From Massalongia carnosa (Eukaryota): a stretch of 64,000 nt of DNA. The notes beneath the pieces were generated by a model, which saw nothing but the letters and a program-made list of their open reading frames with translations, was not told the origin of the DNA and did no database searches. Of this stretch, positions 1 through 64,000 are shown piece by piece. The position numbers were made by a program, and so were the translations under genes. The stretch covers positions 1,798,001 to 1,862,000 of the forward strand of contig OZ287067.1 of the NCBI GenBank assembly GCA_965645245.1, given 5' to 3'. Each line of letters starts with the position of its first letter. Positions within the stretch are counted from its first letter, which is position 1.

Positions 1-1605
1 AATACGCAATTCGATTATTGAAGATTGCCGAAAATAACCCTATTTGTCAAAGAATTCCAAATACATATTCGATAAAATTCGAAAACATCGGTTTTGACAC
101 TAGTTTATGGAACAACAAATATGCCGAATGGAACGAAGACGAAAAACAAACAAATAAACGACATCCTAGTCAGCTCATTCGCGTTCTTCATTCCGTTTCC
201 GACATAGTTCACAAAACTGATGAGATTGAACAATCAAATCATTTTATTAAACCATGGAAATCGCCGTGCAAAATCGAATTTCAAATCGAAAATACAAAGG
301 AATCTGCTAAATCAAGTTATTATTCGACCTTATCCAAAATTCAATCAATGAACTCCGATAAATCCCGAGTTTTACTTTATACGGATGGATCAAAAATCGA
401 ATTTGCAACGTCTGCAGTCACATTTGCGCCAATTATGAGGAATTGGAGTAGTATTATCAATAATTTTGATCGATTTATCGAAAAAGATTGTCTGATCAAG
501 TATCATACGATTTCGAAAAGCTGGAAATTAAGCAAACAGTCAAGCATTAAAAATGCTGAACTGCATGCAATTTTACAAGCAATGAAATGGGTCTATAAAT
601 TGTCTAATACTAATATTTTATCGAACTTGGAAAAAACGATTTGGATTTTTTCTGATAGTATAAACGCGATAAACGAAATTCAGAACTTGAAAAATCATAT
701 TTTCGCAAGACAAATTCGAAAGCTCGCAAAACGCTTATTTGAAAGCAATTATCAGGTGATTTTGCAATGGGTTCCGAGTCATTTGAATATTACCGAAAAC
801 GAAATTGCAGACAAAATAGCAAAGACGGCCCATAATCAAATCCTAGTCGAGTCCTCGGCTATAACATTTGATTATGTAAAAGATCAAATAAATCAAAATA
901 TGCTAACCACATGGACGAATCAATGGCAACAATGCAAATCAAAAGGCAAATACTACGAGAAATTCGAAATGAAACCTGGCATATCGAGATTTTATTATTT
1001 ATCAAACAACTGTTCCAAATTGATATTTGCCACTATTATGCAATTAAAATTCGGACACGGCTATTTTCGATCATATTTACATCGGTTGAAAGATTATAAT
1101 TCGTCAAAATGCTCAAATCGATGCAATCAACGACAAACGCCAGAACACTTGTTATTGAATTGCATTCACTATTTCGATGAAATTCAAAACATGAAACAAA
1201 CCATCGATACTACGATCAACTTGAATATGTTGTTTAATACAAAAATCGGAAATGACATTTTGATTAAATTCATTGTCAATAACAAAATCGCGACTAGAAA
1301 ATGGATACTAGGTCAGCTTGATGACGATATTTTCGAAACTGGAGGTTGGGGAGAGATCGAACAGTAAAATCAGAAACGATTTATGCTGAAACAGTTACGA
1401 ACTTACAAAGATAAATTGTAAAATCGATAATTTTCGATTACTATAGGTTGTTACTAACACGGAGTAAAAATGGGGAAAAATTGACAATACATAGATGGGT
1501 TATAAAGGGTTGATTTATTTGTAATATAGAAACATATCCTAAAATAGTTTAGTGTCATAACCTTAGGTTGAATACACTTAATGAATAAATAAAAAAAAAA
1601 AAAAA
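1..1605 (+). mobile_element. LINE-A (Tad-like non-LTR retrotransposon, subtype A1) copy 1, 3' portion with 3' UTR and poly(A) tail
   Basis: RNase H-containing ORF, 3' UTR shared with the other copies, ending AATGAATAAAT plus A15 at 1591-1605. The 5' part lies outside the window. Confidence 0.92.
18..1367 (+). CDS. LINE-A ORF2 C-terminal part: RNase H and terminal zinc-finger-like motif (partial, frame open to the window edge)
   Basis: YTDGS...NAELHAI...IFSDS...LQWVPSH...NEIADKIAK RNase H motifs; CSNRC...TPEHLLLNC. Confidence 0.9.
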   Translation: MKIAENNPICQRIPNTYSIKFENIGFDTSLWNNKYAEWNEDEKQTNKRHPSQLIRVLHSVSDIVHKTDEIEQSNHFIKPWKSPCKIEFQIENTKESAKSSYYSTLSKIQSMNSDKSRVLLYTDGSKIEFATSAVTFAPIMRNWSSIINNFDRFIEKDCLIKYHTISKSWKLSKQSSIKNAELHAILQAMKWVYKLSNTNILSNLEKTIWIFSDSINAINEIQNLKNHIFARQIRKLAKRLFESNYQVILQWVPSHLNITENEIADKIAKTAHNQILVESSAITFDYVKDQINQNMLTTWTNQWQQCKSKGKYYEKFEMKPGISRFYYLSNNCSKLIFATIMQLKFGHGYFRSYLHRLKDYNSSKCSNRCNQRQTPEHLLLNCIHYFDEIQNMKQTIDTTINLNMLFNTKIGNDILIKFIVNNKIATRKWILGQLDDDIFETGGWGEIEQ

Positions 1606-4052
1606 CAGACTATTCGCTACCAAAATCATATCGAATTATCACATTACTAAATTGTCTTGGTAAAATTGCTGAGAAAATCGTTGCAAATCGACTAGCCTAC
1701 TTCGGCGAAACTTCGAATTTACTAGATATCGAACAGATGGGCGGACGCAAAAATCATTCTGCAATTGACGCAGTAATGAACGTCGTTCATGATATCGAAA
1801 TTGCGAATCGAAATAAAAGCGTTTTATCCTGTTTATTACTCGATGTCAAAGGCGCATTTGACTTTGTCTCGATTAATCAACTGCTAAATGTCATGAAAAA
1901 GCTGAAATTATCTCGCATAATAATTCAATGGGTCAAGCATTTCATGACAAAACGATCGATAAATTTGATATTCGATGAAAACAAAAGCAAAACATATTAT
2001 GTCGAATCAGGAATTCCACAAGGTTCACCAATCTCGCCTATTCTATTTCTGATTTACATTCGTCACTTGTTTCCGAAAATACGAATGAAATTTAATGCAC
2101 ATTCTCCCAGTTTTATTGACGATGTTGCAATATATGTCGAAAATAAAACTGCAAAACAAAATTGCAAAGAAATCGAAATCATAGTCAAAACAGCTTTTGA
2201 TTGGGCCGCATCGAATAATGTCAAATTTGATGACGATAAATCCGAGCTGATTCACTTCGAAAAGACAAGAAATGTATCGAAAGACACATTGGAATTACCA
2301 AACGGGACAATACTAGAACCGAAAAATGTAGACAAATGGTTGGGCGTCTGGTTAGACCGGAAACTGAATTTCAAAAAACACGTCGAAACGCGAATCTCTT
2401 CTGCGAATCGATCGTTTTTTGCAATTCAGAATTTGATGAAATCCGAATGGGGTCTGAAACCGACCGCATGCAGACAGCTCTATTTGTCATGCATTATTCC
2501 TATTTCGGACTATGGCTCAGAAATTTGGTAAAATGGTCAAAAGAAATATGAAAAACTATTTCAGAACCTACAAAATCGAATGATTCGAAAGATTTTAGGA
2601 ACTTTCAAAACCACACCTATTCAGGCGATGGAAATTGAATCACATGTTTTACCAGTAAAACTTCGATTATTAATGAAAAATCAAAAATACGCAATTCGAT
2701 TATTGAAGATTGCCGAAAATAACCCTACTTGTCAAAGAATTCCAAATACATATTCGATAAAATTCGAAAACATCGGTTTTGACACTAGTTTATGGAACAA
2801 CAAATATGCCGAATGGAACGAAGACGAAAAACAAACAAATAAACGACATCCTAGTCAGCTAATTCGCGTTCTTCATTCCGTTTCCGACATAGTTCACAAA
2901 ACTGATGAGTTTGAACAATCAAATCATTTTATTAAACCTTGGAAATCGCCTTGCAAAATCGAATTTCAAATCGAAAATACAAAGGAATCTGCTTAATCAA
3001 GTTATTATTCGACCTTATCCAAAATTCAATCAATGAACTCCGATAAATCCCGAGTTTTACTTTATACGGATGGATCAAAAATCGAATTTGCAACGTCTGC
3101 AGTCACATTTGCGCCAATTATGAGGAATTGGAGTAGTATTATCAATAATTTTGATCGATTTATCGAAAAAGATTGTCTGATCAAGTATCATACGATTTCG
3201 AAAAGCTGGAAATTAAGCAAACAGTCAAGCATTAAAAATGCTGAACTGCATGCAATTTTGCAAGCAATGAAATGGGTCTATGAATTGTCTAATACTAATA
3301 TTTTATCGAACTTGGAAAAAACGATTTGGATTTTTTCTGATAGTATAAACGCGATAAACGAAATTCATAACTCGACAAATCATATTTTCGCAAGACAAAT
3401 TCGAAAGCTCGCAAAACGCTTATTTGAAAGCAATTATCAGGTGATTTTGCAATGGGTTCCGAGTCATTCGAATATTACCGAAAACGAAATTGAAGACAAA
3501 ATAGCAAAGACGGGCCATAATCAAATCCTAGTCGAGTCCTCGGCTATAACATTTGATTATGTAAAAGATCAAATAAATCAAAATATGCTAACCACATGGA
3601 CGAATCAATGGCAACAATGCAAATCAAAAGGCAAATACTACAAGAAATTCGAAATGACACCTGGCATATCGAGATTTTATTATTTATCAAACAACTGTTC
3701 CAAATTGATATTTGCTACTATTATGCAATTAAAATTCGGACACGGCTATTTTCGATCATATTTACAGCGATTGAAAGATTATAATTCGTCGAAATGCACA
3801 AATCGATGCAATCAACGATAAACGCCAGAACACTTGTTATTGAATTGCATTCACTATTTCGATTAAATTCAAAACATGAAACAAAATATCGATACTACGA
3901 TCAACTTGAATATGTTGTTTAATACAAAAATCGGAAATGACATTTTGATTAAATTCATTGTCAATAACAAAATCGCGACAAGAAAATGGATACTAGGTCA
4001 GCTTGATGACGAGATTTTTGAAACTGGAGGTTGGGGATAGATCGAACAGTAA
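1606..4052 (+). pseudogene. LINE-A ORF2 (RT plus RNase H) with premature stops
   Basis: LLLDVKGAFD, GIPQGSPISP and SFIDD RT motifs. In-frame stops end at 2531, 2996 and 3821 where sister copies have sense codons. Confidence 0.9.
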
Positions 4053-4290
4053 AATCAGAAACGATTTATGCTGAAACATTTACGAACTTACAAAGACAAA
4101 TTTTAAAATCGATATTCTTTGATTATTATAGGTTGTTACTAACACGGAGTAAAAATGGGGAAAAATTTCCAATACATAGATGGGTTATAAAGGGTTGATT
4201 TATTTGTAATATAGAAACATATCCTAAAACAGTTTAGTGTCATAACCTTATGTTGAATACACTTAATGAATAAATAAAAAAAAATAAAAA
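1606..4290 (+). mobile_element. LINE-A (A1) copy 2, from mid-RT to poly(A)
   Basis: Begins directly after the poly(A) of copy 1 at 'DYSLPKSYRIITLLN'. Near-identical to copy 1 over the shared 3' region. A-rich tail at 4276-4290. Confidence 0.92.
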
Positions 4291-5510
4291 GATAGTTACG
4301 AAAAAAGTCAAAGTGGTCGCGAGATTTAACCGAACTTCAAAAACCATGTGCAGAAATCGTCGAGAATGGAAGAATTATCCCTCCCGATTTTAGTCATCGG
4401 ACGTTTAAACAGAGTCGATTCGAGTATTTTCATGCATTTCGAAAAGCAAAACAATAAACCTGGTTGACTTTTCTAGAAAATGCAGCAAATAAAGATGTAT
4501 TTACCGCGTATAAATACACTAAACCGCGCATATTCGAAAAAATACCTCCGATTCTACATGAAAACATGCTAAATGTTCAGTTTAATGACAAGTCCGATCC
4601 ATTTTTGTCAGCAATTTACACAAATAACCCATTTATAGACAATAATGTCGAAGATCTGTTAAATCAAGACAGCGAAAATGATGATAATTGGCCTGATTTG
4701 ACCGAAAACGAGTTGAATAATGCGATTAATTTATTTATTACAAATAGAGCATGTGGACCTGATGCAATCAATTTTACAATTGTCAAAAATCGTTTCAATC
4801 GTTGAAAAATGTATTTTTCATTATTTATTCGAAATTTATTCGAATCGGTTATCACCCGTTATACTAGCGGACAGGACTCAGTGCAGTTCTGAAAAAACCT
4901 AATAAATCCGACTATTCGCTACCAAAATCGTATCGAATTATCACATTACTAAATTGTCTTTGTAAAATTTCTGAGAAAATCTTTGCAAATCGATTAGCCT
5001 ACTTCGGCGAAAATTCTAATTTACTAGATATCGAACAGATGTGCGGACGCAAATATTATTCTGCAATTGACGCAGTAATAAACGTTCGAAATTGCAAATC
5101 GAAATAAAAACGTCTTGTCATGTTTTTTACTCGATGTCGAAGGCGCATTTGACTTTCTCTCGATTAATCAACTGCTAAATATCATGAAAAAGCTGAAATT
5201 ATTTCGCCTAATAATTCAATGGGTCAAGCATTTAATGACAAAACGATCGATCAATTTGATATTCGATGAAAAAAAAGTAAAACATATTATGTCGAATCAG
5301 GAATTCCACAAGGCTCACCAATCTCGCCTATTCTATTTCTAATTTACATTCGTCACTTGTTTCCGAAAACACGAATGAAATTCAATGCACATTCTCCTAG
5401 TTTTATTGACGATGTTGCAATATATGTCGAAAATAAAACTGCAAAACAGAATTTCAAAGAAATTGAAATCATAGTCAAAACAGCCTTTGATTGGGACGCA
5501 TCGAATAATG
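4291..5510 (+). mobile_element. LINE-A (A1) copy 3, degraded RT fragment
   Basis: Homologous to the ORF2 region from the end of the endonuclease through RT (ACGPDAI, LLDVEGAFD, SFIDD), with several stops and frameshifts. Breaks at about 5510. Confidence 0.88.
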
Positions 5511-5944
5511 TTAATACTAATAGAATTCTCTAAGTCATGCCTTCGGACGGAGATTAACCTCAAACCTCGGTAGTCAAATTGCCACTATATGGGTGTCACA
5601 TGTGGCATTTTCCTGCAAGCGAAGCCCTAAGTCAAGCTAAACCGTGGGCAATCCCTTACTTTTTTCGTTTTGATTTAGGCTAATTACATATTTTCAATTT
5701 CCCTGCAACAGAATTTCACGAGTTGAACACGAAACACATATGCCAACTACGCGTTAACTACGTTCGAAACACCAAAAAGACACGAAGTACGCGTGATTCA
5801 GTTGAGAAATTCAATCTCCTGGCTACTGCTTTAATTTTATTTGCGCTGGCCGCGAGAGCAATCTCCCAGCCACCAAATTTTGATTGGCCCAATATTCCAG
5901 CTGCTGCTGTGCAAGGCAGACAAAAGACTGTCGAATATGGCCTC

Positions 5945-6214
5945 GTAAAAGGCATAACCAAAGCCAAAATTATTCAGGACATAACCAAAGCCAAATCTAT
6001 TCAAGGCATATCCAAAGCCAAATCTATTCAAGGCACAACCAAAGCAAAAGCTATTCAAGAAATAACCAAAGCCAAATCTATTCGAGGCACAACCAAAGCG
6101 AAATTTATTCAAGGCACAACCAAAGCCAAAGTTATTCAAGGCACAACCAAAGCCAAAGCTATTCAAGGCACAACCAAACCCAAAGCTATTCAAGGCACAA
6201 TCAAGGCCAAAGCT
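5945..6214 (+). repeat. 27-bp minisatellite, about 10 units (consensus ATTCAAGGCACAACCAAAGCCAAAGCT)
   Basis: Directly visible; translates as (IQGTTKAKA)n in one frame. Confidence 0.95.
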
Positions 6215-6453
6215 CATCAAGCTCGAGCGGTACTTCCCCTGAACAACCCAATCGATAGAGGCTGCTAGCAAGATCAAGATAAGGATTTCGTAACCCAAGA
6301 TTCCTAAATAGCGAACTCCTCCAGTCACCCAGGCCAGTCTGAATATGAATCGGACCTAGAAGCCCCAAGCGACTGTGTCCTTTTTGGCCTGATAGTTATA
6401 TCGCCCAAGAGAAGTACCCCCAAAGCAAAGCAAGCATCATCTCGCTGCCCGTG

Positions 6454-9400
6454 ATGATTGACAAAGTCTCCGGCTCCACTTCCCTCTCAATCCTCGAGAA
6501 GATCCCCAAGCTCTCGGATCATGAATAGTACCCGGCATGGAGAAGTTCAATACGGGACAGTTTGAAGATGATCAACCTGTGGACGTGGATAGCAGTCAAA
6601 ACAACCGCGCCCGCGATAGATGCATCTGTAACTGCCACTGAAGCAGCTACCGACGATGTCTCTACCGACGGCGCCTACGCTGCCCTAATAAAGGCGCAAG
6701 CCAGAGCCTTAGAGCAGTACACCGACGGGCACGACGAAGCCTGCACAGAGTTGAGAATAGCATGCGAGGGTAATGCCTACGCGGAAATTGAGGACATGGA
6801 AAACGCCGCAGAAGCCTAGAGCCACCTCGAAAAATCTACAAATCAAAAGGGGCAGGTTTTCTCAACGACACTTTTCGCCAGCTGGACAATCTTGCCCTGG
6901 CCAACTGTAGCGGCTCGGCGGACTACGTCACTCAGTTTCGAGGTATCGTGAACAAGCTCAAATCATTCTCTACCAAGCTGGCTTTGGACGAGAACTACCT
7001 GATCTACCGTTTTCACACCAATCCGGGCCCTGATCACAGCAGCTATTTCGAACGCTATGCCTAAGACCACGACCCGTTTGCTGAGGATGGAACCACCAAG
7101 CATACTCTCAGTCAAGCAATGCAGCACTTCCAAAACACGGTCGCGAACCCAAAGACCGCTGCCGGGGGTGCGATAGTCTCCATGGTCGCACTTCGCCCTA
7201 CCCGTAGACATGGAAATGGTAGCGGCGGCAGAAACAGAACTGGATACGAAAAACAAAATCAGGAATCGGTGCAGCCGACCGCCAATGAGACGGCTGTGAT
7301 CACCAAATCGGTCAAGTACTGCAATCACTGCAAAAGGCCGTATCACACCGAGAAGGAGTATCGAATCAAGCATCCGCACTTGGCAACGCAAGACAGTCAA
7401 CGGTCCAAGACCTGGAAGCGCACCAAAAATGAAGGCGGTAAAAATCCTATAGCCAAGCCCAGCGGCGACAACGACACTGCCAAGCCAGCCTATGTCGCGT
7501 TTATGGTCATGGCTCCCTCTCCTGACGACTCCCAAATCAAATAAATAGCTAAGCTATGGATATGGGACTGAAGCAACAGTCAACACATTTGCCACGACCT
7601 ATCCGCCTTTACCCAGCTAAAAGAAGGGAGCCTCGCGCCAATACAGGGGATCGGGGGTGCATTAACCCCTCGAGGCACCGGTACAGTCTCCCTCTCCTCT
7701 GTGGACGGTCAAGGAAAATACCGCACCTTCCCCCTTTACAACGTCCTGTATATCCCCGAAGGAGGCCTCAACCTGATCTCCCAAGGTCAGCTGCAACGAG
7801 AAGGCTACCTCATGCAAATTGTGCCTCAGGGAATCGAGATCGGCAGCTACGGCATCATGGCACGTCGTCAAGAAAATAACCTGTACATTTTAGATTTGTT
7901 CAACGTTCCACAATCCGCCCTCGCACTTGCTGCTGTCAACAGTGAGGCATTAAAGATGCGGCATGCCCGTCTCGGCCACTTAGGAGAGCAAAACGTGGTC
8001 AAACTCGCCAGCATGTCGCAAGGCATGGACCTTAGCAAGCCGCCTCCCGAAGACTCCTGCGGCCCCTGCGCCGTTGCCCAAATCATAGCGGAACCTCATA
8101 AGGCCCCCATGGAGCCAGCTAAGTAACCACTGGACCTCATCCACAGCGACGTTCAGGGCCCCTTCAAAGAAACAGCCAACGGCGCCAAATACTTGGTTAC
8201 CTTTCACTGTGACTTCGATAGACGGTCTCACGTGTCACTGCTCCGCTCTAAAGATGGGGTGTTTCAAGCTTTCCTCAACTACAAAAAACAAAACGAGTAC
8301 GGAGACAAATGCATAAAACGTTTGAGATCGGACAACGGGGGTGAGTACAACTCCGTTGAATTTGACAGGTTCCGACTCGAAACCGGTATCTGATGGGAGC
8401 CGACTATGCCAGGAAACCCGGAGCAAAACGGCAAAGCAGAGCGCCTGGGTAAAAATTTGCACAAGATGGCTAGCACAATGCGAGTAGACGCGGGGCTAGA
8501 TGAAAAGTGCTGGGCCGAATTGGTACTAATAGCCAATTACCTGCGAAATCGACAACCCACGGCAGGAAGAAACATCACCCCTTACGAATCTCACATAGGC
8601 AGTCCCCCCAAGCTAGGACAATTACGCATTGTAGGGCAAACCGGCTACGCACAAGTGAGAAAGCCTAATACCGGTTGGAAGAAATTCCAGGATCGCGCCA
8701 TCAAGTGCAGATTAGTTGGTTACGAAGGCGATCATATTTATCGAATGGTCACGCCCAAGGGAGTAGTGATAAGGTTCTCCAACTTCAAATAAATAGACAA
8801 CCTTCCCGCGTCGCTGCCTCAGGCCCCTTCAGATCCCCCTTCCCCCGCCCCGCCCCCGCCGCCTCAAATCATCGAAATTGAAGACGACGCTCCCCGTACA
8901 AAAAGGCTTAAGACCTCCCTATCTGATGAGGCCGCCGCTCTCGACTTCCTAGACACTATTGAAGTACCGACCGACGAAGTCCTATCACCCATGCCTACAC
9001 CACTTCCTCCTCCTCCAAAGCCTATCCGGCAAAGAGTCCAATCGGAGGTGCTTGCTAGGCATCCAGAGCTACGAGAATGCTCCCCCGACCCCCTGGCCAT
9101 GCTCGCTCTCCTCGCCCACACCGCAAGCATAGAGCCCTACGAGCCGAAAACCTACAAGCAGGCCGTACGGTGCCGAGATCACCGGGATTGGAGAAAGGGC
9201 ATGCAGGACGAGATCGACTCAGTTAACGCCAATAATAGCTAAAAGCTGGTGTTTATCCCTCCAAACCGACGAGCGCTCCGTGCCAAATGGGTCTACCGCC
9301 TGAAACGTGGAGCCATGGGTGATGTTCTCCGGCACAAGGCACGATGGGTGGTCAGAGGCTTTGAGCAACGAGAGGGCATCGACTTTAACGAAACGTTCGC

Positions 9401-53443: not shown

Positions 53444-54295
53444 TGTGCATTCATGATTGCGTGTTTCATGGTTTTGCGCACATATGCTGCATTTCGCTTG
53501 ACTTTTGTATTGATAATGCTTGTGTCCAAATTTTTGACAATTAATAAATTGTGTGTTTGAACGAACGGAGGTAAATATTTCCGTATCACAATGTCGGCCC
53601 GCGATATTGACTCCTTTTAACGCGTTCTAGGCTATATTTCGATCATTAAATGTCAAAACAACGGATGATTTTATCTTGTTATGATATCAAGGACTGGGTT
53701 AGGGATTGAACTAATGTTTCAAAGACTGGGATTGGGTGATCAAGATATCTTTATTAATGAAGCTATAGCTAGGGGATGGTTTGCTATACAAGACGCCGGA
53801 CGAGGAGTCAACTATTTACAGGATATGTCCACTTTTTATACCTGAGCCAGCCCCTTCTTTCTCATGTTTTACCTTCACCCTAGATGAGAGATTGTCAGGG
53901 TCCTGGCCTGACCCGACATGCTCTGGTGGTCACGGGACAGCGTGACTCGCCTAAGCAGTAGCGCGCGTCGCTTGACTGGCTAGCGCGCCCACGGTAGATT
54001 ATGTTTAGGAGTTCAGCGATGATTATTCTTTTCTTTCCTTCCTTGTAGTTAAATTCTAGTTCATAGCTACTGAATAATATCAGGGCAAGCTGCCTGACAT
54101 AATTTAACTACCTTTAATGCTTATTAGTACTCTTCCAGTCTTCTAGAACTTTCAGCACATTTAGAAAGGGACAACGACCTGCTCCTTTAGCTTTCCAGAA
54201 CGACCACTCGTGAGAATTCGAGCTGGTCCTCTCTCCAGAACCTTTAGAACTTCCAGAATCGAAAGACAGAGCTCTTTCACCTCCAGAACACAGTC

Positions 54296-55901: not shown

Positions 55902-55992
55902 TCCTTGATCAAAATCGCGATCAAGGACGTCTTAAGAAAGATGTCATTTGTGAAATTGGTAGCGCTGAAATGAAGACAGTAAGGGTCTCTAG

Positions 55993-58900
55993 TTGTGCTG
56001 TCTCGATACTGAAAAGAAGATCGAGGGCAAGCATCTAGTATTTAAAACTAGCATAGCTGGAATTAAAACTCGTTTACTTGTTGATAATGGAAGTGAGGCT
56101 GAGCTCATTGATGAATCCTTCGCGCGTGTAAATAAACTGAACACCTCCAAATTAGAAACGGGGGTTAAACTGACCCTTGGAAACGGAGAGGTTGCCCAAC
56201 TTCTCACGAGGACCGCCCTAGTCGACGTCAAAATCGGGGATCATCAAGAACAAGTCCTTTGCTATGTAGCAAAACTGGACGTGTACGCGGTTATTCTAGG
56301 AGATGGATGGCTACAAACTCACAACCCCAGCATTGACTGGAAAGAGCGAATTATGAAATTTAACTCTGCCGATTGCTTGGAAATGGGATGCCTTTCGCGT
56401 GGAATAACCTGCACCGAATTTGCTGTTGGAAGTAGGGCAAAGAATAGGATCGGAACAAAAGACGATATCGAAGTCCTTCCGGTCAATGCGAAACATTTCT
56501 TTCGGATGGTTAGGAAGAAAGATCACGAGGGATACTTATGGACTCCCCGAGAACATAAGACCTTCTGTGCCACAACCACTGGGGCCGTCACCTCAAAGGA
56601 TTACGACAAGTTTATGAAAGGCAAACCCGAGTACTCCCGCGAAGAATTGTTGAAGAAAATTCTCTCAGAGTATCATAGCATGATAGAAGTCTTTATGAAG
56701 CATAAAGCAGACGAACTACCGGAACATCGTAAGGAGGATCACGAGATCAACCTCATGGACGGAAAAGAACCCCCTTATGTCAGGAACTATAAGCCTATGT
56801 CAGAACAGGAGTTGGAAGCTGTCAAGAAGTATATTGACGAACATATGGGAAAGGGATTCATTCGTCCCAGTTCGTCGACAGCAGCTGCTCCAGTCCTTCT
56901 AGTTCGAAAACCAGGTGGTGGACTGAGATTTTGTGTGGACTATCGAGCCTTGAATGCCATCACAGTAAAGAATCGATATCCTATTCCCCTAATTAACGAG
57001 ACGCTCGGAAAACTCTCGCAGGCAAAACGCTTCACGAAACTAGACGTTATTACGGCATTCAATCGTCTTCGAGTAAAAGAAGGACATGAATGGCTTACCG
57101 CTTTTAACACAAGATATGGCCAGTTCGAATATCTGGTCATGCCTTTCGGTTTATGCAATGCTCCAGGGACTTTTCAGAGTTATATAAATAATTCGGTTCG
57201 GGAATATTTAGACGTCTTTTGTACTGCTTATCTGGATGACGTCTTGATCTACAGTGATAATGAGGAAGAACATTCAGATCACGTCTTGAAGCTTCTTAAA
57301 CGCTTGGGGGAACGAGGACTCCAAGTTGACATTGACAAATGTGAATTCTCGGTGACTAAAGTAAAGTACCTCGGACTTATAGTCACCACTGAAGGAATAC
57401 AAATGGATTCCGAGAAGATTGAAGCGATTTTGAAATGGGAAACTCCGGAGTCCGTGAAGGACGTGCAAGCTTTTTTAGGCTTTGCAAACTTCTATCGACG
57501 ATTCATATCAAAGTTCTCTCAGCGTACAAGGTCTCTGACGGAATTAACAAAAGGAGAACAAATAACGACCAAGTCGGGCAAGAAGAGAACCCGATATAAC
57601 GTGTTCACCTGGACCGAAGATTGTAAAAAAGCTTTCGAAGATTTGAAAGAGGCCTTCACTACTGCACCAGTGTTAGCGCACTATGATCCTTCTCTAGAGA
57701 CATGGATAGAAACAGACTCTTCGGATTTCGTCACTGCCGGAGTCTTATCTCAGATGCATGACGGAGTGCTCAAACCGGTAGCATATTTCTCCAAGAAGAT
57801 GACACCGGCCGAATGTAATTACATGATATATGATAAGGAACTCCTCGCTATCATAAAGAGCTTCGAGGTCTGGCGGCCCGAGGCAGCAAGTGCTGCGCCT
57901 GACCAGCCAATCAAAGTTTATACTGATCATAAAAACCTGGAACACTTTATGACGACAAAGCAACTGAACCGCAGACAAGCCCGATCGGCTGAATTCCTTT
58001 CGGAGTTCAATTACAAAATCATGTATCGACCGGGCAGACAAGGCGAAAAGCCGGACACACTTACTCGACGTTCTCAAGATCTTCCAAAAGGGTTTGACGA
58101 CTCTCGACAACAACATCAATTCCAGACATTGCTACAGGAGCATCAACTAGACGATGACGTAAAGAAGGCTTTATCAGTGATCTTCTGTGCAAACACAAGA
58201 ACAAATGACACTGACGAAGAAGCTGAGGAACCCCAGGCCATCGAGGACGATGAAGAGGCTCAGGGTCAGATTTTAAATGAAAATCCGGTGAAAGAACTAG
58301 GCGACGATTCGGAAGAAGATCCATCAGCGAAACCTCTAGAAGAACTAATTGAAGAAGCTTATGAAAAAGATGAAGTAGTTCAAGACATAATCGCTGCCAA
58401 AACACGAGAACTTCGCAAGCTTCCATCGCATCTTATAAAGAAAGGGATCAAATTAGCCATGGGAGATCTCAAAGTGAAAGATGAAAGACTATATGTCAAA
58501 GATAGGCTGTATGTCCCAGATCATGAACCCCTTCAATTATGCCTGTTGCAGAAACATCACGAACCTCCTCTGCAAGGACACCCGGGATATAAAAGCATGT
58601 ATCAGTCACTGATGGAAAACTACTTCTGGTTCGACATGAAGGATCACTGCAAAAGATACGCAGTGAACTGCTCCATTTGTCGAAGTTCAAAATCATACAA
58701 TGTCAAGAAACAGGGCTTACTGAATCCTCTACCCATACCGAACAGAAAATGGACAGACGTCTCTTTAGATTTTGTGGAGTTTTTGCCGGAATGTCGGCGA
58801 AGGAATAGAGTGTATCAACACATATTAGTGATAGTAGACCGTCTAACAAAAAAACGATTATACGAACCGCTTACGTCACTCTCCACCGACGAATTAATGG

Positions 58901-59961
58901 ACGCCATGTCTCGACGACTCTTCTCCTCGTATGGCTTTCCATTGTCAACGGTAAACGATCGAGGCAGTCAGCTGACTGCTCATCTGTGGAAAAGAATTTG
59001 TGAAAGATACGGAGTAAAGATAAAGTTCTCTTCAGCGCATCATCCAGAAACGGATGGTCAAACTGAGAATGCAAATAAAGTAATGAAGAACTACCTTCGA
59101 TCATACATCAATTATGCTCAGAACAACTGGGTCGACTATCTTTCAGATGCCGAGTTCGCCGTCAACAATCATGTTAACGTTTCGACAGGAATGACACCAT
59201 TTTTCGCAGATCACGGCTTTCATCCTCGTTCGGGAATAGAGCCTCCAGGAACATATGAAGAAAAGGGAAAAGCCGAGATACTTCATGCTGACAAAATAGT
59301 CGCTCGCCAGGAAGCAATGCGAGAATGGTTAAGAAATCAGCTAACATGGGCCCAGGAAGAACAAACACGACATGCTAACAAAGATCGTCAACCGCACCCA
59401 GAATACAAAGTGGGCGATTTAGTGTACGTTAATGCTAAACATTTCGCATCAGAGCGTCCAAGTCGTTCCCTCGGGTTTAAAAACGTTGGTCCCTGGAAAA
59501 TTGTTAGGATAATCGATAACAAGGCATATGAGCTGGACATACCACAGCATTTAAAGAATGTGGGACTCACCCCAATATTTCATCCATGGAAGTTGCATCT
59601 CGCTCCGTCCAATCCGTTCCCAGGGCAAGTACTGCCTCCCGGCCCACCTGTCTTGATCACCGAGAACGATAAGGAGGCAACACATGAAGAGTGGGAAATC
59701 TTAGAGATAGTGGACTGTCGAGAGACAAGGAAATTTGGGGTACAGTATAAGGCTACATATATTGGAAATTGGGACGAATGGAACGCTGACCCACCTTGGC
59801 AACCATGGACCGACTTCAGAAAGTCTATCGAAAAGGTTCTGCAATATCATAGAGAACATCCTCGAAAACCGAAGGCGCCAGAGGACCTCACAGGGATGGA
59901 TCAGACGATCGATAACGTCAGACCATCTACGGAAACCGTAGATGGACCCGATGAGGCTTAG
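55993..59961 (+). CDS. pol: Gypsy-F Pol (PR-RT-RH-IN-divergent chromodomain)
   Basis: LLVDNGSE; LRFCVDYR, YLDD; ETDSS; HPG..CSIC, NDRGSQ; GPW; EEWEILEIVD. Confidence 0.93.
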   Translation: MCCLDTEKKIEGKHLVFKTSIAGIKTRLLVDNGSEAELIDESFARVNKLNTSKLETGVKLTLGNGEVAQLLTRTALVDVKIGDHQEQVLCYVAKLDVYAVILGDGWLQTHNPSIDWKERIMKFNSADCLEMGCLSRGITCTEFAVGSRAKNRIGTKDDIEVLPVNAKHFFRMVRKKDHEGYLWTPREHKTFCATTTGAVTSKDYDKFMKGKPEYSREELLKKILSEYHSMIEVFMKHKADELPEHRKEDHEINLMDGKEPPYVRNYKPMSEQELEAVKKYIDEHMGKGFIRPSSSTAAAPVLLVRKPGGGLRFCVDYRALNAITVKNRYPIPLINETLGKLSQAKRFTKLDVITAFNRLRVKEGHEWLTAFNTRYGQFEYLVMPFGLCNAPGTFQSYINNSVREYLDVFCTAYLDDVLIYSDNEEEHSDHVLKLLKRLGERGLQVDIDKCEFSVTKVKYLGLIVTTEGIQMDSEKIEAILKWETPESVKDVQAFLGFANFYRRFISKFSQRTRSLTELTKGEQITTKSGKKRTRYNVFTWTEDCKKAFEDLKEAFTTAPVLAHYDPSLETWIETDSSDFVTAGVLSQMHDGVLKPVAYFSKKMTPAECNYMIYDKELLAIIKSFEVWRPEAASAAPDQPIKVYTDHKNLEHFMTTKQLNRRQARSAEFLSEFNYKIMYRPGRQGEKPDTLTRRSQDLPKGFDDSRQQHQFQTLLQEHQLDDDVKKALSVIFCANTRTNDTDEEAEEPQAIEDDEEAQGQILNENPVKELGDDSEEDPSAKPLEELIEEAYEKDEVVQDIIAAKTRELRKLPSHLIKKGIKLAMGDLKVKDERLYVKDRLYVPDHEPLQLCLLQKHHEPPLQGHPGYKSMYQSLMENYFWFDMKDHCKRYAVNCSICRSSKSYNVKKQGLLNPLPIPNRKWTDVSLDFVEFLPECRRRNRVYQHILVIVDRLTKKRLYEPLTSLSTDELMDAMSRRLFSSYGFPLSTVNDRGSQLTAHLWKRICERYGVKIKFSSAHHPETDGQTENANKVMKNYLRSYINYAQNNWVDYLSDAEFAVNNHVNVSTGMTPFFADHGFHPRSGIEPPGTYEEKGKAEILHADKIVARQEAMREWLRNQLTWAQEEQTRHANKDRQPHPEYKVGDLVYVNAKHFASERPSRSLGFKNVGPWKIVRIIDNKAYELDIPQHLKNVGLTPIFHPWKLHLAPSNPFPGQVLPPGPPVLITENDKEATHEEWEILEIVDCRETRKFGVQYKATYIGNWDEWNADPPWQPWTDFRKSIEKVLQYHREHPRKPKAPEDLTGMDQTIDNVRPSTETVDGPDEA

Positions 59962-61038
59962 CTTCGAATAAGGGATTATTCGTTTCTTTAGTCAAGAATT
60001 GGTTGAACGGAGCGAATTATTCACGACTCCGAGACGTCGTCCATAGAAGGGGGGGTAGTGTCAGGGTCCTGGCCTGACCCGACATGCTCTGGTGGTCACG
60101 GGACAGCGTGACTCGCCTAAGCAGTAGCGCGCGTCGCTTGACTGGCTAGCGCGCCCACGGTAGATTATGTTTAGGAGTTCAGCGATGATTATTCTTTTCT
60201 TTCCTTCCTTGTAGTTAAATTCTAGTTCATAGCTACTGAATAATATCAGGGCAAGCTGCCTGACAGAGATTTTGGTTATGGTGGCGGCGATAAGGTGGAG
60301 CGATAAGTGGGCCCGTGGATGTGATCGTTCTAGCGATAAGAGGGTATAGTGGAGTGAGGAGATTGGTGGAGTAGAGTAAGGGGTTTATTCAGACTCATAC
60401 CGAGGATGAATCTGAATAGGCTTTCAGGTGGCTTTTACCTCGATCGCCGCTTGACGGTTCGGTAATCATTAGGTTTTAACTCAAACTTTATTTCATGACA
60501 TATGACGATCACGTGCTAGCTATCTGGGAACATCGCATAATTGCATGTTCTAATTGAGCTTTTGAATTTCGTCTTGCAAATATTGCATGTTTTCATCAAA
60601 TTTTGCAATATTTACACCGTGTGCGACGACTTTGAACCACGATTCGTCCTTTCGAACTATTCGTGGGTCGAATAAATGCTCCCATATTGATTTATTGTTC
60701 AATAAATCTTCAGCAGTGTTATCAGGACTAGTAGTCAGAACGATGTTTTGAACCGTTTTGGACTTTTCGACCGTGTTAACAACGATAGTCAATTTCGCGT
60801 CTTTAAAAAGCGAATTGATTTGGTTTCGAAGCAACAGTAGATCGATATCGCCGATTTGAGCATTCGGTGTGATTATCAACCGTCGAGATTTGATCGCCTT
60901 GAAATCTTCAGTATTATCGAATTTGTTCGCATTCGAATTATTGTTGTTGTTATTATTATTTTTTTTGGATCGAGGAACGGTAGTCCAATTTTCGGAATTG
61001 ACAGTCGCTTTTCCGAGCATTTGGCTCCATGTTCTAGC

Positions 61039-64000
61039 TGTTATGATCTACCTAGAGACAAGTCATAGGGACACTAGAAACGAATACAATCAAGATGAAG
61101 AAGAAAAGATCAATTGTAAGACAAATCTCGCTCCTATATAGTCCAGCGGCCCCTAGCCCTCGACCGACTCGTGGAAGGATCTAGAAGGTTCGAGCATTGA
61201 CCAGCTATGGAAACCGTGAATGCCGCGATGAGTCTAGCGCGCACACGCGATCCCGTGACTTCGGCTTGTGGCTTGTTCCGCTCCGGTCTACCGAAGTAGT
61301 GCCGAGTAGAACCGTGACACTACCCCCCGCTTTAGATCGCGAGTCACCTGACCGCGATAATGTCCGCGTTATCTCCGCTTAATCTGAGACTAAGTGACCG
61401 ATGCGATTAGTGCGATCATCGCGGTTTATTTGGGTTTCGTTGATGGAAGTCATCCACCACTTCTTTTGCATTTTCGAAACCTTCGGCATCATACCATGTC
61501 AGGTCCTCGTCAATTCCCTTCCATTTGACCTTGTATTGCACCTTTCGGTACCTCTTTCGTGAGTCCAGAATGTCATCAAGTTCCCATTCTTCGCTACCTT
61601 CTACGACTATGGGTGGCGGTGGCTCGTTTATCTGACCTGGGAGTGGGTCGTCTGAGGCCTTTCGAAGCATGCTGGTATGGAAGACATCGTGAATTTTCAT
61701 TGATGGTGGCAATTCTAGTTGACAGGATGACCCTACTAACTTCTTGACTCGATAGGGTCTAATCATCTTATGGTCCAATTTCTTGGACGTTCGTTCTGTC
61801 TTGATATTTCGAGTAGATAACCATACCTTGTCGCCTACTTCATATGAGACGTCTCTTCGGTGTCGGTCAGCTGCTGTTATTTGCCTTTCTTGGGCCTTTC
61901 CCATATTTTGTTTGACGAAATCCCAGATTTTCTTCATGTCCTCGGTAATCGCTCGGGCTTTTCCATTGGCTAGCCTTTCCCTTGTTGATTCTGACGACAG
62001 TTCGATTGGGTCGAAACTCATTCTTGGTTCATAACCTTTCGTGGCCATGAATGGTGACAATCCGGTAGTGGCCGATGGTGCGCTGTTTGCGGCAAATTCC
62101 GCCATTGGAAGAAGGTCCGCCCAGTCGTCCTGATTATAGTTCACGAAACTCCGAAGGTGACGTTCCATTTCCTGATTCGCGATTTCACTTTGTCCATCTG
62201 TTTCTGGATGATAGGCTGTGGACAATTTCGCTGTGATTCCAAGGATTTTACACCAGGCTTTCCAAACTGTTGATGTGAATTGGGGGCCCCGGTCCGATAC
62301 TATGCTGCTTGGGAGTCCAAGATAGCGCCATACGTTGTCCACTAGGAGTTTTGCTGTGGCCTCGGACGTAGTTCCTTCTTCATCACATGTGCATGGGATA
62401 TAGTGTCTCTCTTTGGACAGTCGGTCTACTACCATCAGGATGGCGTCATTTCCATTGCTCTTCGGGAGGCCGGTAACGTAGTCTAGGGTGATGTCCATCC
62501 ATGGTCTTTCTGGTATGGGTAGCGGTTTCAGCAGTCCATTATACTTGTCCCTTGGGGCCTTGGCTCGTCGACACACATGGCAATTTCGCACATAGCGGCG
62601 TATGTCCTTGTTCATGCCTGGCCAATAGTAGTTCCGGCCGATTACATTCACCGTTCTGGCCATTCCGGGATGCCCTACCGCCACTTGGTCGTGTATTTGC
62701 CGAATAACCTCTAGGATGGTCTCTTTCTTGTCCGGCACCCATAAGCCCTTTCGTTTGTATAGCAGTCCGTTCTTCTCGGTGCAGTTCTTTATGTCCGGTA
62801 GAGAGTCGTCATCAGAGTTTCCTTCCTTTATCGCGTTTCGTATTCGGGTGCAGAGTTCGTCTTCGAGGTTTTCCTGTTTGATTCTTTCGTCGAGGGTCGG
62901 GAGTTCGGGGTCGGGTTCATCGTTCCGTGTCGTTTCTTCTGGTTCCGTCGCTTCTTCAATGGGCTGAAGTTCCAATCTTTCCGGGGGCAGTAGCGTCTGC
63001 AATTGGTGCTGCTGCCTTTCATCATCATCGTCGTGGGGCTTATCGTTTGGCCTTCGGGTTAGCGCGTCTGCTTTTTCATTTTTCTTTCCAGGCCGGTAGG
63101 TGATGACGAAATTGAACTCCGAAAGGAACTCCGCCCATCGGGCTTGCCGTCTAGTTAGTTTCTTCGTGGTCATAAAATACTCCAGGCTACGATGGTCGGT
63201 GAAGATTTTCACTGGTAACTCCGTGCTTTCGAGTTCCGGCTTCCATTGTTCAAAGTATCGAATGATTGCTAGCAGTTCCTTGTCATAGATTTCGTAGTTG
63301 CATTCTGCTGGGCTCATGTTCTTTGAAAAGAAGGCTACCGGGTGAAGTTCTCCGTCGTCTCCTATCTGGGACAACACACCTCCATTGACATGGTCCGAGG
63401 AGTCCGTTTCCAAGTAGCACTGCTTGTTCCGGTCGAAATGTATGAGGACTGGGGCTTCACCGATCCATTTCTGTAACGTCCTGAAAGCCTTTTCACATGC
63501 TGGGGTCCACTCGAATATCCGTTCTTTCTTTGTAAGGGCGTTCAATGGTTTGGCAATTTTTGAAAAACCCCTGATGAACCGATGATAGAAATTGCAAAAA
63601 CCAATGAACGACCGAACTTCACGTAGGCAGGTGGGGGTTTCCCATTCCTGAATAGCTTTGATTTTGGCCGGGTCCATGCGAATGCCATCAACTCCTATGA
63701 TCAGTCCCAGATATTTCGTTTCCGTCACATGGAATTCACATTTGTCTACGTCAGCCTGAAATCCGGCCTCTCGAAGCTTTGTCAAAACGGCCAGCACATG
63801 TTCCCGATGCTCTTTCAGGTTCTTGCTATAAATCAGAATGTCATCCAGGTAAGCCGTGCAGAATTTGTCCAGATAATCGAACAACACATCATTGATGAAG
63901 TGCTGCCAGGTCGACGGTCCTCCGGAAAGTCCAAACGGTAATACCTTGTATTTATAAGCGCCAAAACGGGAGTTGAACGTGGTCAGGTCTTCAGATTCCA
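61039..64000 (-). mobile_element. Ty3/Gypsy chromovirus Gypsy-G, 3' half; continues beyond the window
   Basis: 3' LTR at 61039-61319 (TGTTA...TGACA) next to the PPT complement CTACCCCCCGCTTT. Interrupts LINE-A ORF1. Confidence 0.92.
61416..64000 (-). CDS. pol: Gypsy-G Pol, partial (RT-RH-IN-chromodomain)
   Basis: YLDD, ETDSS, YDKELLAI, SDRGPQF, EWELDDILD..VKWKG. Close paralogue of Gypsy-D Pol. Confidence 0.93.
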   Translation of the reverse strand, partial: ESEDLTTFNSRFGAYKYKVLPFGLSGGPSTWQHFINDVLFDYLDKFCTAYLDDILIYSKNLKEHREHVLAVLTKLREAGFQADVDKCEFHVTETKYLGLIIGVDGIRMDPAKIKAIQEWETPTCLREVRSFIGFCNFYHRFIRGFSKIAKPLNALTKKERIFEWTPACEKAFRTLQKWIGEAPVLIHFDRNKQCYLETDSSDHVNGGVLSQIGDDGELHPVAFFSKNMSPAECNYEIYDKELLAIIRYFEQWKPELESTELPVKIFTDHRSLEYFMTTKKLTRRQARWAEFLSEFNFVITYRPGKKNEKADALTRRPNDKPHDDDDERQQHQLQTLLPPERLELQPIEEATEPEETTRNDEPDPELPTLDERIKQENLEDELCTRIRNAIKEGNSDDDSLPDIKNCTEKNGLLYKRKGLWVPDKKETILEVIRQIHDQVAVGHPGMARTVNVIGRNYYWPGMNKDIRRYVRNCHVCRRAKAPRDKYNGLLKPLPIPERPWMDITLDYVTGLPKSNGNDAILMVVDRLSKERHYIPCTCDEEGTTSEATAKLLVDNVWRYLGLPSSIVSDRGPQFTSTVWKAWCKILGITAKLSTAYHPETDGQSEIANQEMERHLRSFVNYNQDDWADLLPMAEFAANSAPSATTGLSPFMATKGYEPRMSFDPIELSSESTRERLANGKARAITEDMKKIWDFVKQNMGKAQERQITAADRHRRDVSYEVGDKVWLSTRNIKTERTSKKLDHKMIRPYRVKKLVGSSCQLELPPSMKIHDVFHTSMLRKASDDPLPGQINEPPPPIVVEGSEEWELDDILDSRKRYRKVQYKVKWKGIDEDLTWYDAEGFENAKEVVDDFHQRNPNKPR

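Follow-up and report, generated by a model that had tools for sequence, protein, structure and literature searches.

A gene-free retrotransposon nest built on copies of one AT-rich LINE in Massalongia carnosa: a candidate transposon-cluster centromere

When a long stretch of a fungal chromosome appears to hold nothing but retrotransposons, the question arises of what it is built from and whether it marks a particular part of the chromosome. The window considered here (the whole 64,000-nucleotide stretch analyzed, from contig OZ287067.1 of Massalongia carnosa) is almost certainly part of a gene-free retrotransposon nest larger than 64 kb, in which the oldest layer is made up entirely of copies of a single AT-rich fungal LINE (LINE-A). 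A structure of this general kind is already known. The map (Table 1) was based on self-blastn of the window, sensitive blastn of the leftover segments and junction read-outs. After removal of the inserts, about 17.6 kb (27.6% of the window) is left, all of it LINE-A and without host gene or unique spacer, as the initial annotation had proposed. This layer comprises six to seven LINE-A copies, as recognized by self-blastn and by sensitive blastn of the leftover segments. It has received about 11 younger inserts of at least eight other families, namely five Gypsy and two Copia elements, a single GC-rich LINE (LINE-B) and three solo-LTR-like pieces. Ten of the 11 lie in LINE-A and one in a solo-LTR-like element, in agreement with the earlier statement that every LTR-type insert and LINE-B sits in LINE-A or in something inside it. 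The inserts had also been described as flanked by target-site duplications (TSDs), which holds for nine of them (ten insertions if LINE-A copy Z is counted) but fails for Copia1; across the ten TSD-bearing insertions, LINE-A resumes at the exact position at which it was interrupted. Nesting reaches three layers (Gy3 or Copia2 within Z, itself within Y), and GC content is 0.32-0.38 in LINE-A versus 0.46-0.51 in the inserts. Identity within LTR pairs is 98-100%, and LINE-B is intact. The LTR inserts represent at least six different families, none of which occurs twice as a full element. Some younger insertions were later removed, leaving the three solo LTRs.

Table 1. Retrotransposon features of the window (positions from the first nucleotide of the window)
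Feature	Position	Strand	Description
LINE-A copy A1	1-1605	+	Subfamily 1; 3' part with Pfam RNase_H and A-rich tail; cut at window start
LINE-A copy A2	1606-4290	+	Subfamily 1; from ORF2 aa ~519 across RT and RNase H, ending in its own tail
LINE-A copy W	4312-5514	+	ORF2 aa ~325-728; ends at Copia1 region
Copia1	5515-11116	+	pol remnants in several ORFs; RVT_2, rve, Pol_BBD, gag_pre-integrs, SH3_retrovirus
LINE-A fragment W2	11117-11230	+	3'UTR piece; adjoins R tail; 89% identical to 1379-1491
LINE-A copy R	11231-13638, 19051-22494, 22766-~23639 (span 11231-23639)	-	Subfamily 2; full length, ~6.7 kb of own sequence
LINE-B	13639-19050	+	GC 0.51; within R; 15-bp TSD TCAAATGCTCCTTTG
Solo LTR, Gy1 family	22495-22765	-	TSD TATCC; in R 5' region; 97.8% identical to Gy1 5' LTR
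LINE-A copy Y, part 1	23640-24282, 30425-32045, 37951-38012	-	Within span 23640-61038; six pieces in total
Gy2 (Gypsy 2)	24283-30424	-	LTRs 98.15% identical; TSD TGCAG; several frame breaks
Gy1 (Gypsy 1)	32046-37950	+	LTRs 99.27% identical; TSD ATATT
LINE-A copy Z	38013-38223, 44079-44295, 50652-52214 (span 38013-52214)	-	Subfamily 2; 5'-truncated; within Y, 12-bp TSD CAAAATGTTAAA
Gy3 (Gypsy 3)	38224-44078	+	LTRs 99.16% identical; TSD AATAT; RT split over two frames
Copia2	44296-50651	+	LTRs 100% identical; TSD ATTTC; within Z
LINE-A copy Y, part 2	52215-52413, 53444-53684, 60501-61038	-	Within span 23640-61038
Solo LTR, ~1.03 kb	52414-53443	.	TG..CA ends; TSD TGTGC
LTR-like element, ~440 bp	53685-53892, 60266-60500 (span 53685-60500)	.	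TSD TATGA; split by Gy4
Gy4 (Gypsy 4)	53893-60265	+	LTRs 100% identical; TSD GAGAT; pol 1322 aa, open
Gy5 (Gypsy 5)	61039-64000	-	Related to Gy3 (78%); runs off window end

LINE-A encodes an endonuclease, a reverse transcriptase (RT) and RNase H. The scaffold had been ascribed to one LINE family, and one family it is, but split into two subfamilies, whose members are 92-97% and 98-99% identical, against 81-86% across the two; divergence among paralogous copies is 2-15%. A1, directly behind whose tail A2 begins, is 97.45% identical to 2686-4290, and W is 92% identical to Y at 30425-31179. R retains the order 5' region, ORF1 and ORF2 (endonuclease, RT, RNase H), and contigs bridge both breaks made in it by LINE-B and a solo LTR. 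Its 5' end probably lies near 23625-23639, where similarity stops and one contig joint occurs. No TSD was found for R, whose flanks are non-contiguous (plus-strand LINE-A 3'UTR on the left, minus-strand LINE-A RT region on the right). Y, the oldest layer, runs from the RT back to ORF1, is 75-86% identical to R, and hosts Gy2, Gy1, Z, two solo-LTR-like elements and Gy5. Z is 97.8-99.0% identical to R. Outside the window, intact ORF2 relatives are represented by P0030 and P0045 (1337 aa each, with Exo_endo_phos, RVT_1 and RNase_H), to which the window copies show 93-99% (subfamily 1) and 90-96% (subfamily 2) identity; amino acid identity is 98.7% for A1 with P0030 and 94-96% for R with P0045. 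LINE-A has relatives in Pezizomycotina, and any relatives of the TE proteins that bear a name are remote (Podosphaera aphanis, 32%).

Among the inserts, LINE-B carries a 581-aa ORF1 and a 1214-aa ORF2 with endonuclease and RT but without RNase H; the latter is 100% identical to P0070 across 92% of its length and 26% identical in amino acids to LINE-A ORF2, and the empty LINE-B site is present in all four public contig runs. Copia1 aligns to the pol of Copia2 in tblastn (43% over 565 aa, 28% over 446 aa). No LTR pair was detected for it, the best local alignment between its two ends scoring 18 whereas shuffled sequences average 19.3 and reach 25, and the LINE-A pieces flanking it are separated by 1.84 kb when placed on the LINE-A element. 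The upstream ~2 kb of Copia1 (5515-7556) is unclassified and contains a 27-bp tandem repeat in ten units (TRF). In Copia2, gag and pol share one frame with a single stop codon between them, and the gag (441 aa) and pol (1362 aa) of Gy1 are both open. The ~1.03-kb solo LTR has no other family member in the window, and the ~440-bp LTR-like element inside which Gy4 lies has no similarity to other window LTRs in sensitive blastn. All five Gypsy integrases had been said to end in a chromodomain. Pfam Chromo (PF00385) recovers four of them, at 31.9 bits in Gy1, 30.2 bits in Gy5, 27.8 bits in Gy2 (cut short, profile positions 1-29 of 53 only) and 24.7 bits in Gy3, slightly below the 25.1 cut-off, whereas Gy4 gives no Chromo match even at E<=10 and has a chromodomain-like C-terminal tail only by alignment to the other Gypsy elements.

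Searches for host features gave consistently negative results. A Pfam scan of 81 of the 147 stop-to-stop ORFs of at least 80 aa, the other 66 all lying within LINE-B, Copia2 or Gypsy elements, returned no non-TE family at the cut-off; the only non-TE matches were Spt20_SEP (17.0 bits) and FANCI_HD1 (17.4 bits), both below it. The window contains no tRNAs, Rfam matches or telomere repeats, and a tandem-repeat search (TRF) found no satellite, only small repeats confined to TEs. A segment of 874 bp (22766-23639) matches nothing else in the window. Since it is covered to LINE-A depth in public contig sets, and contigs in three of four runs connect 22488 with 22765, bridging the solo LTR, it is assigned to the LINE-A 5' region rather than to unique spacer.

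The rise in GC from the oldest layer to the inserts is what an isochore mutated by RIP would produce if later inserts had passed through fewer RIP rounds, as in Cladonia rangiformis, and the same GC pattern is described for RIP regions in PMC12542154. This explanation was rejected for the window and is very improbable. In every LINE-A piece the RIP indices point in the opposite direction (TpA/ApT 0.51-0.60, (CpA+TpG)/(ApC+GpT) 1.22-1.49), so that RIP was not seen. Changes between LINE-A copies are not mainly transitions (Ts/Tv 0.7-1.9), and opposite changes are balanced in run X1 (160 C>T and 136 G>A versus 161 T>C and 171 A>G). Moreover, intact 1337-aa ORF2 proteins are known for both subfamilies, and because the full-length relatives P0030 and P0045 are so alike to the window copies, the AT-rich composition belongs to working elements. 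AT-richness is thus a property of LINE-A itself and not of RIP. The window is also free of CpG depletion, and with neither this nor RIP the sequence bears no methylation footprint.

The initial annotation had regarded LINE-A as locus-restricted, which in the strict sense does not hold. Three LINE-A ORF2 protein clusters have 204, 126 and 32 members (362 together), and the 47 members listed come from contigs of 19 distinct lengths (one of 37 kb and at least 18 contigs of 1.27-3.77 Mb), which may stem from more than one assembly; LINE-A is therefore not confined to one locus. It is strongly clustered in the window, with its six to seven copies in 64 kb, and one LINE-A cluster per chromosome is possible. 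Summed word depth in public contig sets, which is not a copy number, is 624,000-727,000 for LINE-A bins in run X1 and 717-1042 in run X4, compared with 31,000-93,000 and 60-152 for LINE-B and 3,000-6,500 and 7-17 for Copia1. With a depth far above that of every other element compared, LINE-A may equally be dispersed widely. Of the 15 contig joints listed, seven, all from run X1, lead from the LINE-A 3' end (4283-4290) into other, internal parts of LINE-A. Each of these seven is carried by one contig, and in four the shorter side has under 30 letters, a class of joint often unreliable at the likeness setting used.

LINE-A also nests within itself: Z lies in Y with a TSD, R lies in W2, and A1 and A2 each end in a tail that adjoins an internal LINE-A position. 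The Zepp LINE of Chlorella vulgaris may be comparable in inserting into its own earlier copies and so forming nested clusters, but Zepp is an algal element tied to chromosome ends. The younger inserts show a weak preference for LINE-A over earlier inserts, with P=0.006, 0.045 or 0.21 depending on the inserts counted. Under a sequential random-insertion model, 5.8 of 11 inserts are expected in LINE-A versus 10 observed (the first value), and the nine inserts with verified TSDs give the second. None of the four visible LINE-A 3' junctions places a LINE-A copy inside an LTR element, which lends no support to targeting of the region as such over targeting of LINE-A DNA. The proposal that a local chromatin state attracts chromoviruses found no specific support, as two Copia elements and LINE-B, all without a chromodomain, landed in the same layer as the Gypsy elements; relaxed selection accounts for the pile-up no less well than targeting by chromodomains. 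A general sink likewise fits the diversity of LTR families, none repeated in full, better than a dedicated centromere-seeking LTR element. In the proposed mechanism, LINE-A would accumulate where its own copies already sit, since these gene-free copies of 33% GC would offer many AT-rich sites to an AP-type endonuclease. Once such a block had formed, each further insertion would be harmless, allowing LTR elements and LINE-B to pile up, with binding of chromodomains to heterochromatin as a possible further contribution in the case of the Gypsy elements.

Gene-free sequence, a lower-GC LINE layer and young nested retroelements match the traits of published fungal transposon-cluster centromeres, and a centromere reading of the window is accordingly plausible. 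The favoured identity of the block is the transposon-cluster centromere or pericentromere of its chromosome (probability roughly 0.4-0.45), and the whole explanation, combining the LINE-A nest, the pile-up mechanism and this candidate identity, falls somewhat short of an even chance. Some doubt about the substrate itself comes from two junctions without the expected duplication, R between W2 and Y and Copia1 between W and W2, as might follow if the assembly had fused or collapsed repeat copies that lie apart in the genome. Such an artefact is highly improbable, because a mis-join would not yield matching TSDs on both sides of ten insertions with LINE-A resuming at the exact interrupted position, and the paralogous copies are not identical.

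A far stronger competitor, itself below even odds, is an ordinary non-centromeric transposon island, in which retroelements pile up at no cost in a gene-free, poorly recombining stretch of a RIP-free, repeat-rich ascomycete. LINE-A would then form the base layer only as the most abundant and oldest family, and this block would be one of several on its chromosome. The mixture of arrivals with and without a chromodomain and the number of insert families suit this account, as do the random expectation of more than half of the inserts in LINE-A (the excess being weakly significant), the summed depth of LINE-A far above that of the other elements, the 362 members of its three clusters, and the lack of a satellite or other centromere hallmark in the window. 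In a lichen fungus, PMC12542154 reports one large region per chromosome together with 'a few additional, somewhat smaller' TE islands. On the other hand, side-by-side copies of a single LINE family represent tighter clustering than abundance alone suggests, and within the 64 kb neither a gene nor any further old element occurs. Moreover, where fungi with small chromosomes have been tested, their largest gene-free TE cluster has usually proved to be the centromere (10.64898/2026.09.17.752431).

The candidate centromere can be set beside several known systems. Transposon clusters, the commonest centromere type reported in fungi, were described in 34 of 49 Darwin Tree of Life fungi, with young nested insertions predicted (10.64898/2026.09.17.752431). 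The window shares their high TE density, lack of exons and young nested insertions, but the atlas calls rely on Hi-C and between-chromosome consistency, whereas the likeness drawn here is one of sequence. The Ramalina siliquosa example in that atlas is a Gypsy cluster with 0.22 nesting layers, compared with a recurring LINE and three layers here. In wheat powdery mildew (Blumeria graminis f. sp. tritici), centromeres of 0.68-2.4 Mb are practically gene-free, lower in GC than the arms and furnished with 189-bp and 197-bp tandem repeats, CentA and CentB (PMC6587952). Powdery mildew centromeres had initially been described as marked by one specific Tad-type LINE; the account in PMC6587952 instead gives enrichment in 11 non-LTR families. 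The window resembles them in being gene-free and lower in GC, in non-LTR enrichment, in showing no RIP-type decay and in having a LINE as its AT-rich layer. It differs in its single LINE family with two subfamilies, its lack of a satellite and the size of the LINE-A-bearing contigs (only 1.3-3.8 Mb), and Blumeria centromeres are genetically defined, whereas the window is a candidate read from sequence.

Centromere-like regions of Erysiphe necator accumulate young TEs (PMC10470754) and, like the window, are large, repeat-rich and nearly gene-less, gathering low-divergence young LTR retrotransposons. They are reported to hold less non-LTR sequence than the arms and to contain rolling-circle elements, in contrast to the LINE base layer of the window, in which no rolling-circle element was seen. 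In Mucor circinelloides, a fungus without CENP-A, pericentric regions are marked by Grem-LINE1 (10.1101/706580), an L1-clade element with a zinc-finger ORF1 and without RNase H, unlike LINE-A with its RNase H and its relatives in Pezizomycotina. The two systems are nevertheless alike in consisting of gene-free regions (15-75 kb in Mucor) marked by one non-LTR family, which in Mucor is exclusive to them.

The whole window is accounted for by a nested set of retroelements, as established by self-comparison and a more sensitive pass over leftover segments. Five Gypsy elements occupy 42.6% of it, the LINE family of the base layer (LINE-A) 27.6% (about 17.6 kb), two Copia elements 18.7%, the GC-rich LINE-B 8.5% and solo-LTR-like pieces 2.7%. 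GC content is 0.33-0.35 at 1-6000, 12001-14000, 20001-22000 and 30001-32000 and 0.41-0.54 in the remainder, and all low-GC stretches belong to one non-LTR family, LINE-A. The initial annotation reported no host gene or unique spacer, and this is borne out, with all 64 kb assigned to transposable elements and transposon domains alone exceeding the Pfam cut-offs. No non-transposon Pfam family exceeded the cut-off among the 81 of 147 ORFs (at least 80 aa) that were scanned, the other 66 lying inside LINE-B, Copia2 and the Gypsy elements. The window contains no tRNA genes, Rfam matches, telomere repeats or satellites, its tandem repeats being short ones within elements. In being gene-free and transposon-dense over tens of kilobases, it resembles the transposon-cluster centromeres of fungi.

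Retroelements of the window, with strand, host element and target-site duplication (TSD)
Feature	Coordinates	Strand	Inserted in	TSD	Remark
LINE-A A1	1-1605	+
LINE-A A2	1606-4290	+			5'-truncated
LINE-A W	4312-5514	+			5'-truncated
Copia1 region	5515-11116
LINE-A W2	11117-11230	+
LINE-A R	11231-~23639	-			full length, about 6.7 kb
LINE-B	13639-19050		R	15 bp
Solo LTR, Gy1 type	22495-22765		R	TATCC
LINE-A Y	six pieces between 23640 and 61038	-			old copy
Gy2	24283-30424		Y	TGCAG
Gy1	32046-37950		Y	ATATT
LINE-A Z	38013-52214	-	Y	12 bp, CAAAATGTTAAA	5'-truncated
Gy3	38224-44078		Z	AATAT
Copia2	44296-50651		Z	ATTTC
Solo LTR, 1.03 kb	52414-53443		Y	TGTGC
LTR-like element, ~440 bp	53685-60500		Y	TATGA	span includes Gy4
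Gy4	53893-60265		LTR-like element, ~440 bp	GAGAT
Gy5	61039-64000		Y		extends past window end

All of the base layer is LINE-A, as previously proposed, but what had been described as one family divides by identity into two subfamilies. Copies A1, A2, W and Y share 92-97% identity, R and Z share 97.8-99.0%, and identity across the two subfamilies is 81-86%. The sole segment lacking a match elsewhere in the window, 22766-23639, can be assigned to the LINE-A 5' region, because its contig depth in two public contig-set runs (324,000-344,000 in X1 and 132-197 in X4 over 22677-24000) is comparable to that of LINE-A ORF1 (274,000-310,000 and 181-241, respectively, over 21343-22676) and one contig runs from ORF1 over the solo LTR into this segment. 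With regard to the encoded protein, Pfam detects an AP-type endonuclease, a reverse transcriptase (RT) and an RNase H domain on the ORF2 of window copies, and two full-length ORF2 relatives in a public protein collection (P0030 and P0045, 1337 aa each) carry Exo_endo_phos at 28-237, RVT_1 at 520-771 and RNase_H at 1005-1159, the endonuclease, RT and C-terminal RNase H order expected of a Tad1-like ORF2. Window copies are 93-99% identical to P0030 and 90-96% to P0045. A further database protein, P0001, reaches just 98% identity in a tblastn comparison with the window and was therefore rejected as a marker of the contig that carries it. LINE-A also displays the hallmarks of non-LTR elements, including the absence of LTRs, an A-rich tail at all four visible 3' ends, 5' truncation and a 12-bp TSD around Z. 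The closest named relatives of its protein are from ascomycetes, at 20-32% identity (32% in Podosphaera aphanis). Domain order and host group together suggest that LINE-A is a Tad1-like element.

Ten insertions show a matching TSD on both sides, with the host element continuing in each case exactly where it was broken off. Public contigs bridge two of the empty sites, joining 13623 to 19051 in four of four runs (15 letters at the joint are ambiguous, as many as the TSD has) and 22488 to 22765 in three of four; LINE-B and the Gy1-type solo LTR are thus true insertions. LTR-pair identities are 98.15% (Gy2), 99.16% (Gy3), 99.27% (Gy1) and 100% (Copia2 and Gy4), and LINE-B ORF2 matches a database protein at 100% identity across 92% of its length, which makes the inserts far younger than the oldest layer of LINE-A. 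Besides insertion adding elements, LTR-LTR recombination also removes them here, as indicated by three solo-LTR-like remnants in 64 kb. The closest named relatives of the LINE-B protein occur in Bipolaris and Rhynchosporium (38-40%), and those of the Gy1 pol in Morchella, Aspergillus and Fusarium (55-59%). Taken with those of LINE-A, these relatives place the host in the Pezizomycotina; an Atlas search with the Copia2 pol yielded no informative taxon. LINE-B ORF2 comprises an endonuclease and an RT without an RNase H domain; PF00075 is present in its less closely related fungal relatives, which are 1270-1300 aa long. In Copia2, the gag (46095-47051) and pol (47052-50354) ORFs lie on the + strand in the same frame with one stop codon between them; the stop may be subject to programmed readthrough, or it may have arisen by mutation very recently. 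Tandem repeats lie upstream in both Copia sequences, 72 bp x5 and 126 bp x2 in Copia2 (44965-45344 and 45410-45673) and 27 bp x10 in the Copia1 region (5949-6221).

The description of the inserts as TSD-flanked holds for these ten insertions but not for the Copia1 region or LINE-A copy R. The Copia1 region has recognisable pol domains, and neither an LTR pair on comparison of its ends nor a TSD was found; its LINE-A flanks are separated by 1.84 kb when placed on LINE-A coordinates. A stretch of about 2 kb within the region (5515-7556) gave no Pfam match. The same was true of the ORF at 7065-7541, searched for a gag nature, for which weak Atlas leads (0.87-0.88) point to clusters with zf-CCHC or Retrotran_gag_2 in 13-20% of members. 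For R, a search for left-flank words near the 5' end returned just 8-10-mers of no weight. At its tail R meets the 3'UTR of a + strand LINE-A, and at its 5' end the RT region of Y on the - strand, so that its junctions (11117-11231 and ~23633-23640) involve two separate LINE-A copies in opposite orientations. Target deletion during insertion and later rearrangement are both possible explanations for the missing TSD.

A further proposal was that all LTR-type insertions and LINE-B land in LINE-A or in something already inside it, and 10 of 11 inserts lie in LINE-A itself. Early insertions must fall in LINE-A if the base layer consists entirely of it. A sequential model, with random order and each insertion uniform over the sequence already present, expects 5.8 of 11 in LINE-A (P = 0.006). 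The P value is 0.045 when the model is confined to the nine inserts with verified TSDs and 0.21 with the six large elements. Any preference of the inserts for LINE-A DNA over earlier inserts is at most weak. The related suggestion that the local chromatin attracts chromoviruses has no specific support: the two Copia elements and LINE-B also land in LINE-A, and chromodomain targeting is therefore not needed for the pattern.

Gy1-Gy4 have the chromovirus layout, with protease, RT, RNase H and integrase in order, LTRs and a 5-bp TSD, and Gy5 is clipped by the window end. A chromodomain at the end of all five Gypsy integrases had been described; Pfam recovers it in four, one of them below cut-off, while that of Gy4 is recognised by alignment only. 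PF00385 scores above cut-off in Gy1, Gy5 and Gy2 (truncated) and 0.4 bits below it in Gy3, whereas Gy4 gives no match to the profile at E<=10 and aligns with the others. At what we take to be the aromatic-cage positions, judged by eye, Gy1 and Gy2 appear to retain all three aromatics, presumably the type that binds methylated H3K9, and Gy3 and Gy5 seem to lack the third. A distinction between type I and type II chromodomains is drawn in PMC3059260. In Gy2 the chromodomain (24872-25198, - strand) reaches only position 29 of the 53-position profile, from its start, when the frame ends, and the same element has one in-frame stop at 28130, between its gag/protease and RT ORFs.

AT-richness in fungal repeats is readily attributed to RIP, which is indicated by TpA/ApT of about 0.89 or more and (CpA+TpG)/(ApC+GpT) of about 1.03 or less. 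Every LINE-A piece shows values of 0.51-0.60 and 1.22-1.49, respectively. Because both indices run opposite to the RIP signature, RIP is ruled out as the source of LINE-A AT-richness. Differences between LINE-A copies have a Ts/Tv of 0.7-1.9, change classes in run X1 are symmetrical (C>T 160 and G>A 136 vs T>C 161 and A>G 171), and intact ORF2 proteins are known for both subfamilies (P0030 and P0045). Low GC in the window is a property of LINE-A itself, which corrects a common assumption whether or not the locus is a centromere. The observed/expected CpG ratio is 1.4-1.85 in LINE-A and 0.6-1.0 in the inserts, about 1.0 in most; CpG is not depleted, and the sequence therefore bears no mark of long-term cytosine methylation. 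A CpG excess in 33%-GC LINE-A (e.g. 1-5514, 11231-13638 and 30426-32045) is unusual for an AT-rich element.

Outside the window, a LINE-A ORF2 fragment retrieves three 90%-identity clusters of 204, 126 and 32 members, and the LINE-B ORF2 cluster has 19. The 47 LINE-A members listed lie on at least 19 distinct contigs, 18 of them of 1.27-3.77 Mb and possibly from more than one assembly. LINE-A had been viewed as locus-restricted, a view that in its strict sense is contradicted by this spread over 18 Mb-scale contigs; the family extends beyond the window locus to many large contigs, perhaps to all of them. In X1 and X4 alike, summed word depth over LINE-A, which does not equate to copy number, exceeds that of the Copia1 region by a factor of 30-100 and that of LINE-B by a factor of 5-10. 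In seven of the 15 joints listed (203 further ones exist), the LINE-A 3' end (4283-4290) is linked to internal LINE-A positions, each of the seven resting on one X1 contig and four having a shorter side of <30 letters; such joints would mean that LINE-A lies inside LINE-A elsewhere too. Runs from ten organisms contain at least some LINE-A words; no RNA run was among those listed, which has no bearing on expression. In two runs from other organisms (X2 and X6), contigs over 4001-24000 cover the LINE-A parts alone (16/30 and 15/30 bins), with no cover over LINE-B or the Copia1 region, a contrast that may be a selection effect because the runs had been picked out by their LINE-A words.

The layers of the window are clear, proceeding from an old LINE through a young LINE to very young LTR elements. 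Copies R and Z, 97.8-99% alike, lie within older LINE-A. The most recent inserts, however, are of LTR type and represent many families, and none of them has a LINE-A copy within it. The structure is that of a self-nesting LINE-A cluster which afterwards turned into a sink for other retroelements, with the three solo LTRs pointing to some turnover within it. On the architecture described here, we estimate a probability of about 0.4-0.45 that the window is a centromere or pericentromere. An ordinary transposon island is also a serious candidate, at somewhat below even odds: islands of this kind outside centromeres are reported in fungi (PMC12542154), and the content of the window alone separates neither structure from the other. 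RIP and assembly error, even taken together, are very improbable explanations.

A more specific version of the centromere reading, which we regard as rather unlikely, would make LINE-A a centromere-seeking Tad1-type LINE of a RIP-free, small-chromosome ascomycete. Such an element would both insert into and carry centromeric chromatin, forming one self-renewing nest per chromosome, with both subfamilies active and with chromoviruses and others as secondary lodgers. If true, it would represent a LINE-built centromere in Pezizomycotina outside the powdery mildews, and intact LINE-A could be used to study how non-LTR elements find centromeres. Should the window be a centromere of any kind, it would provide a clean, fully resolved fungal example based on a single LINE family and would help to distinguish targeting of centromeric chromatin by a non-LTR element from mere survival in it; apparently intact LINE-A copies exist elsewhere in the genome. 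Should it not be one, it is a well-documented yet ordinary transposon nest.

The architecture of the window is the same as that reported for several fungal centromeres. Wheat powdery mildew centromeres are gene-free, lower in GC and enriched in 11 non-LTR families (PMC6587952), Grem-LINE1 marks pericentric regions in Mucor (10.1101/706580), and a survey of 325 genomes describes transposon-cluster centromeres in 34 of 49 fungi (10.64898/2026.09.17.752431). The kind of structure is already known, and what is specific to this window is that one LINE family alone makes up the base layer in a non-Blumeria ascomycete and that RIP is clearly absent.
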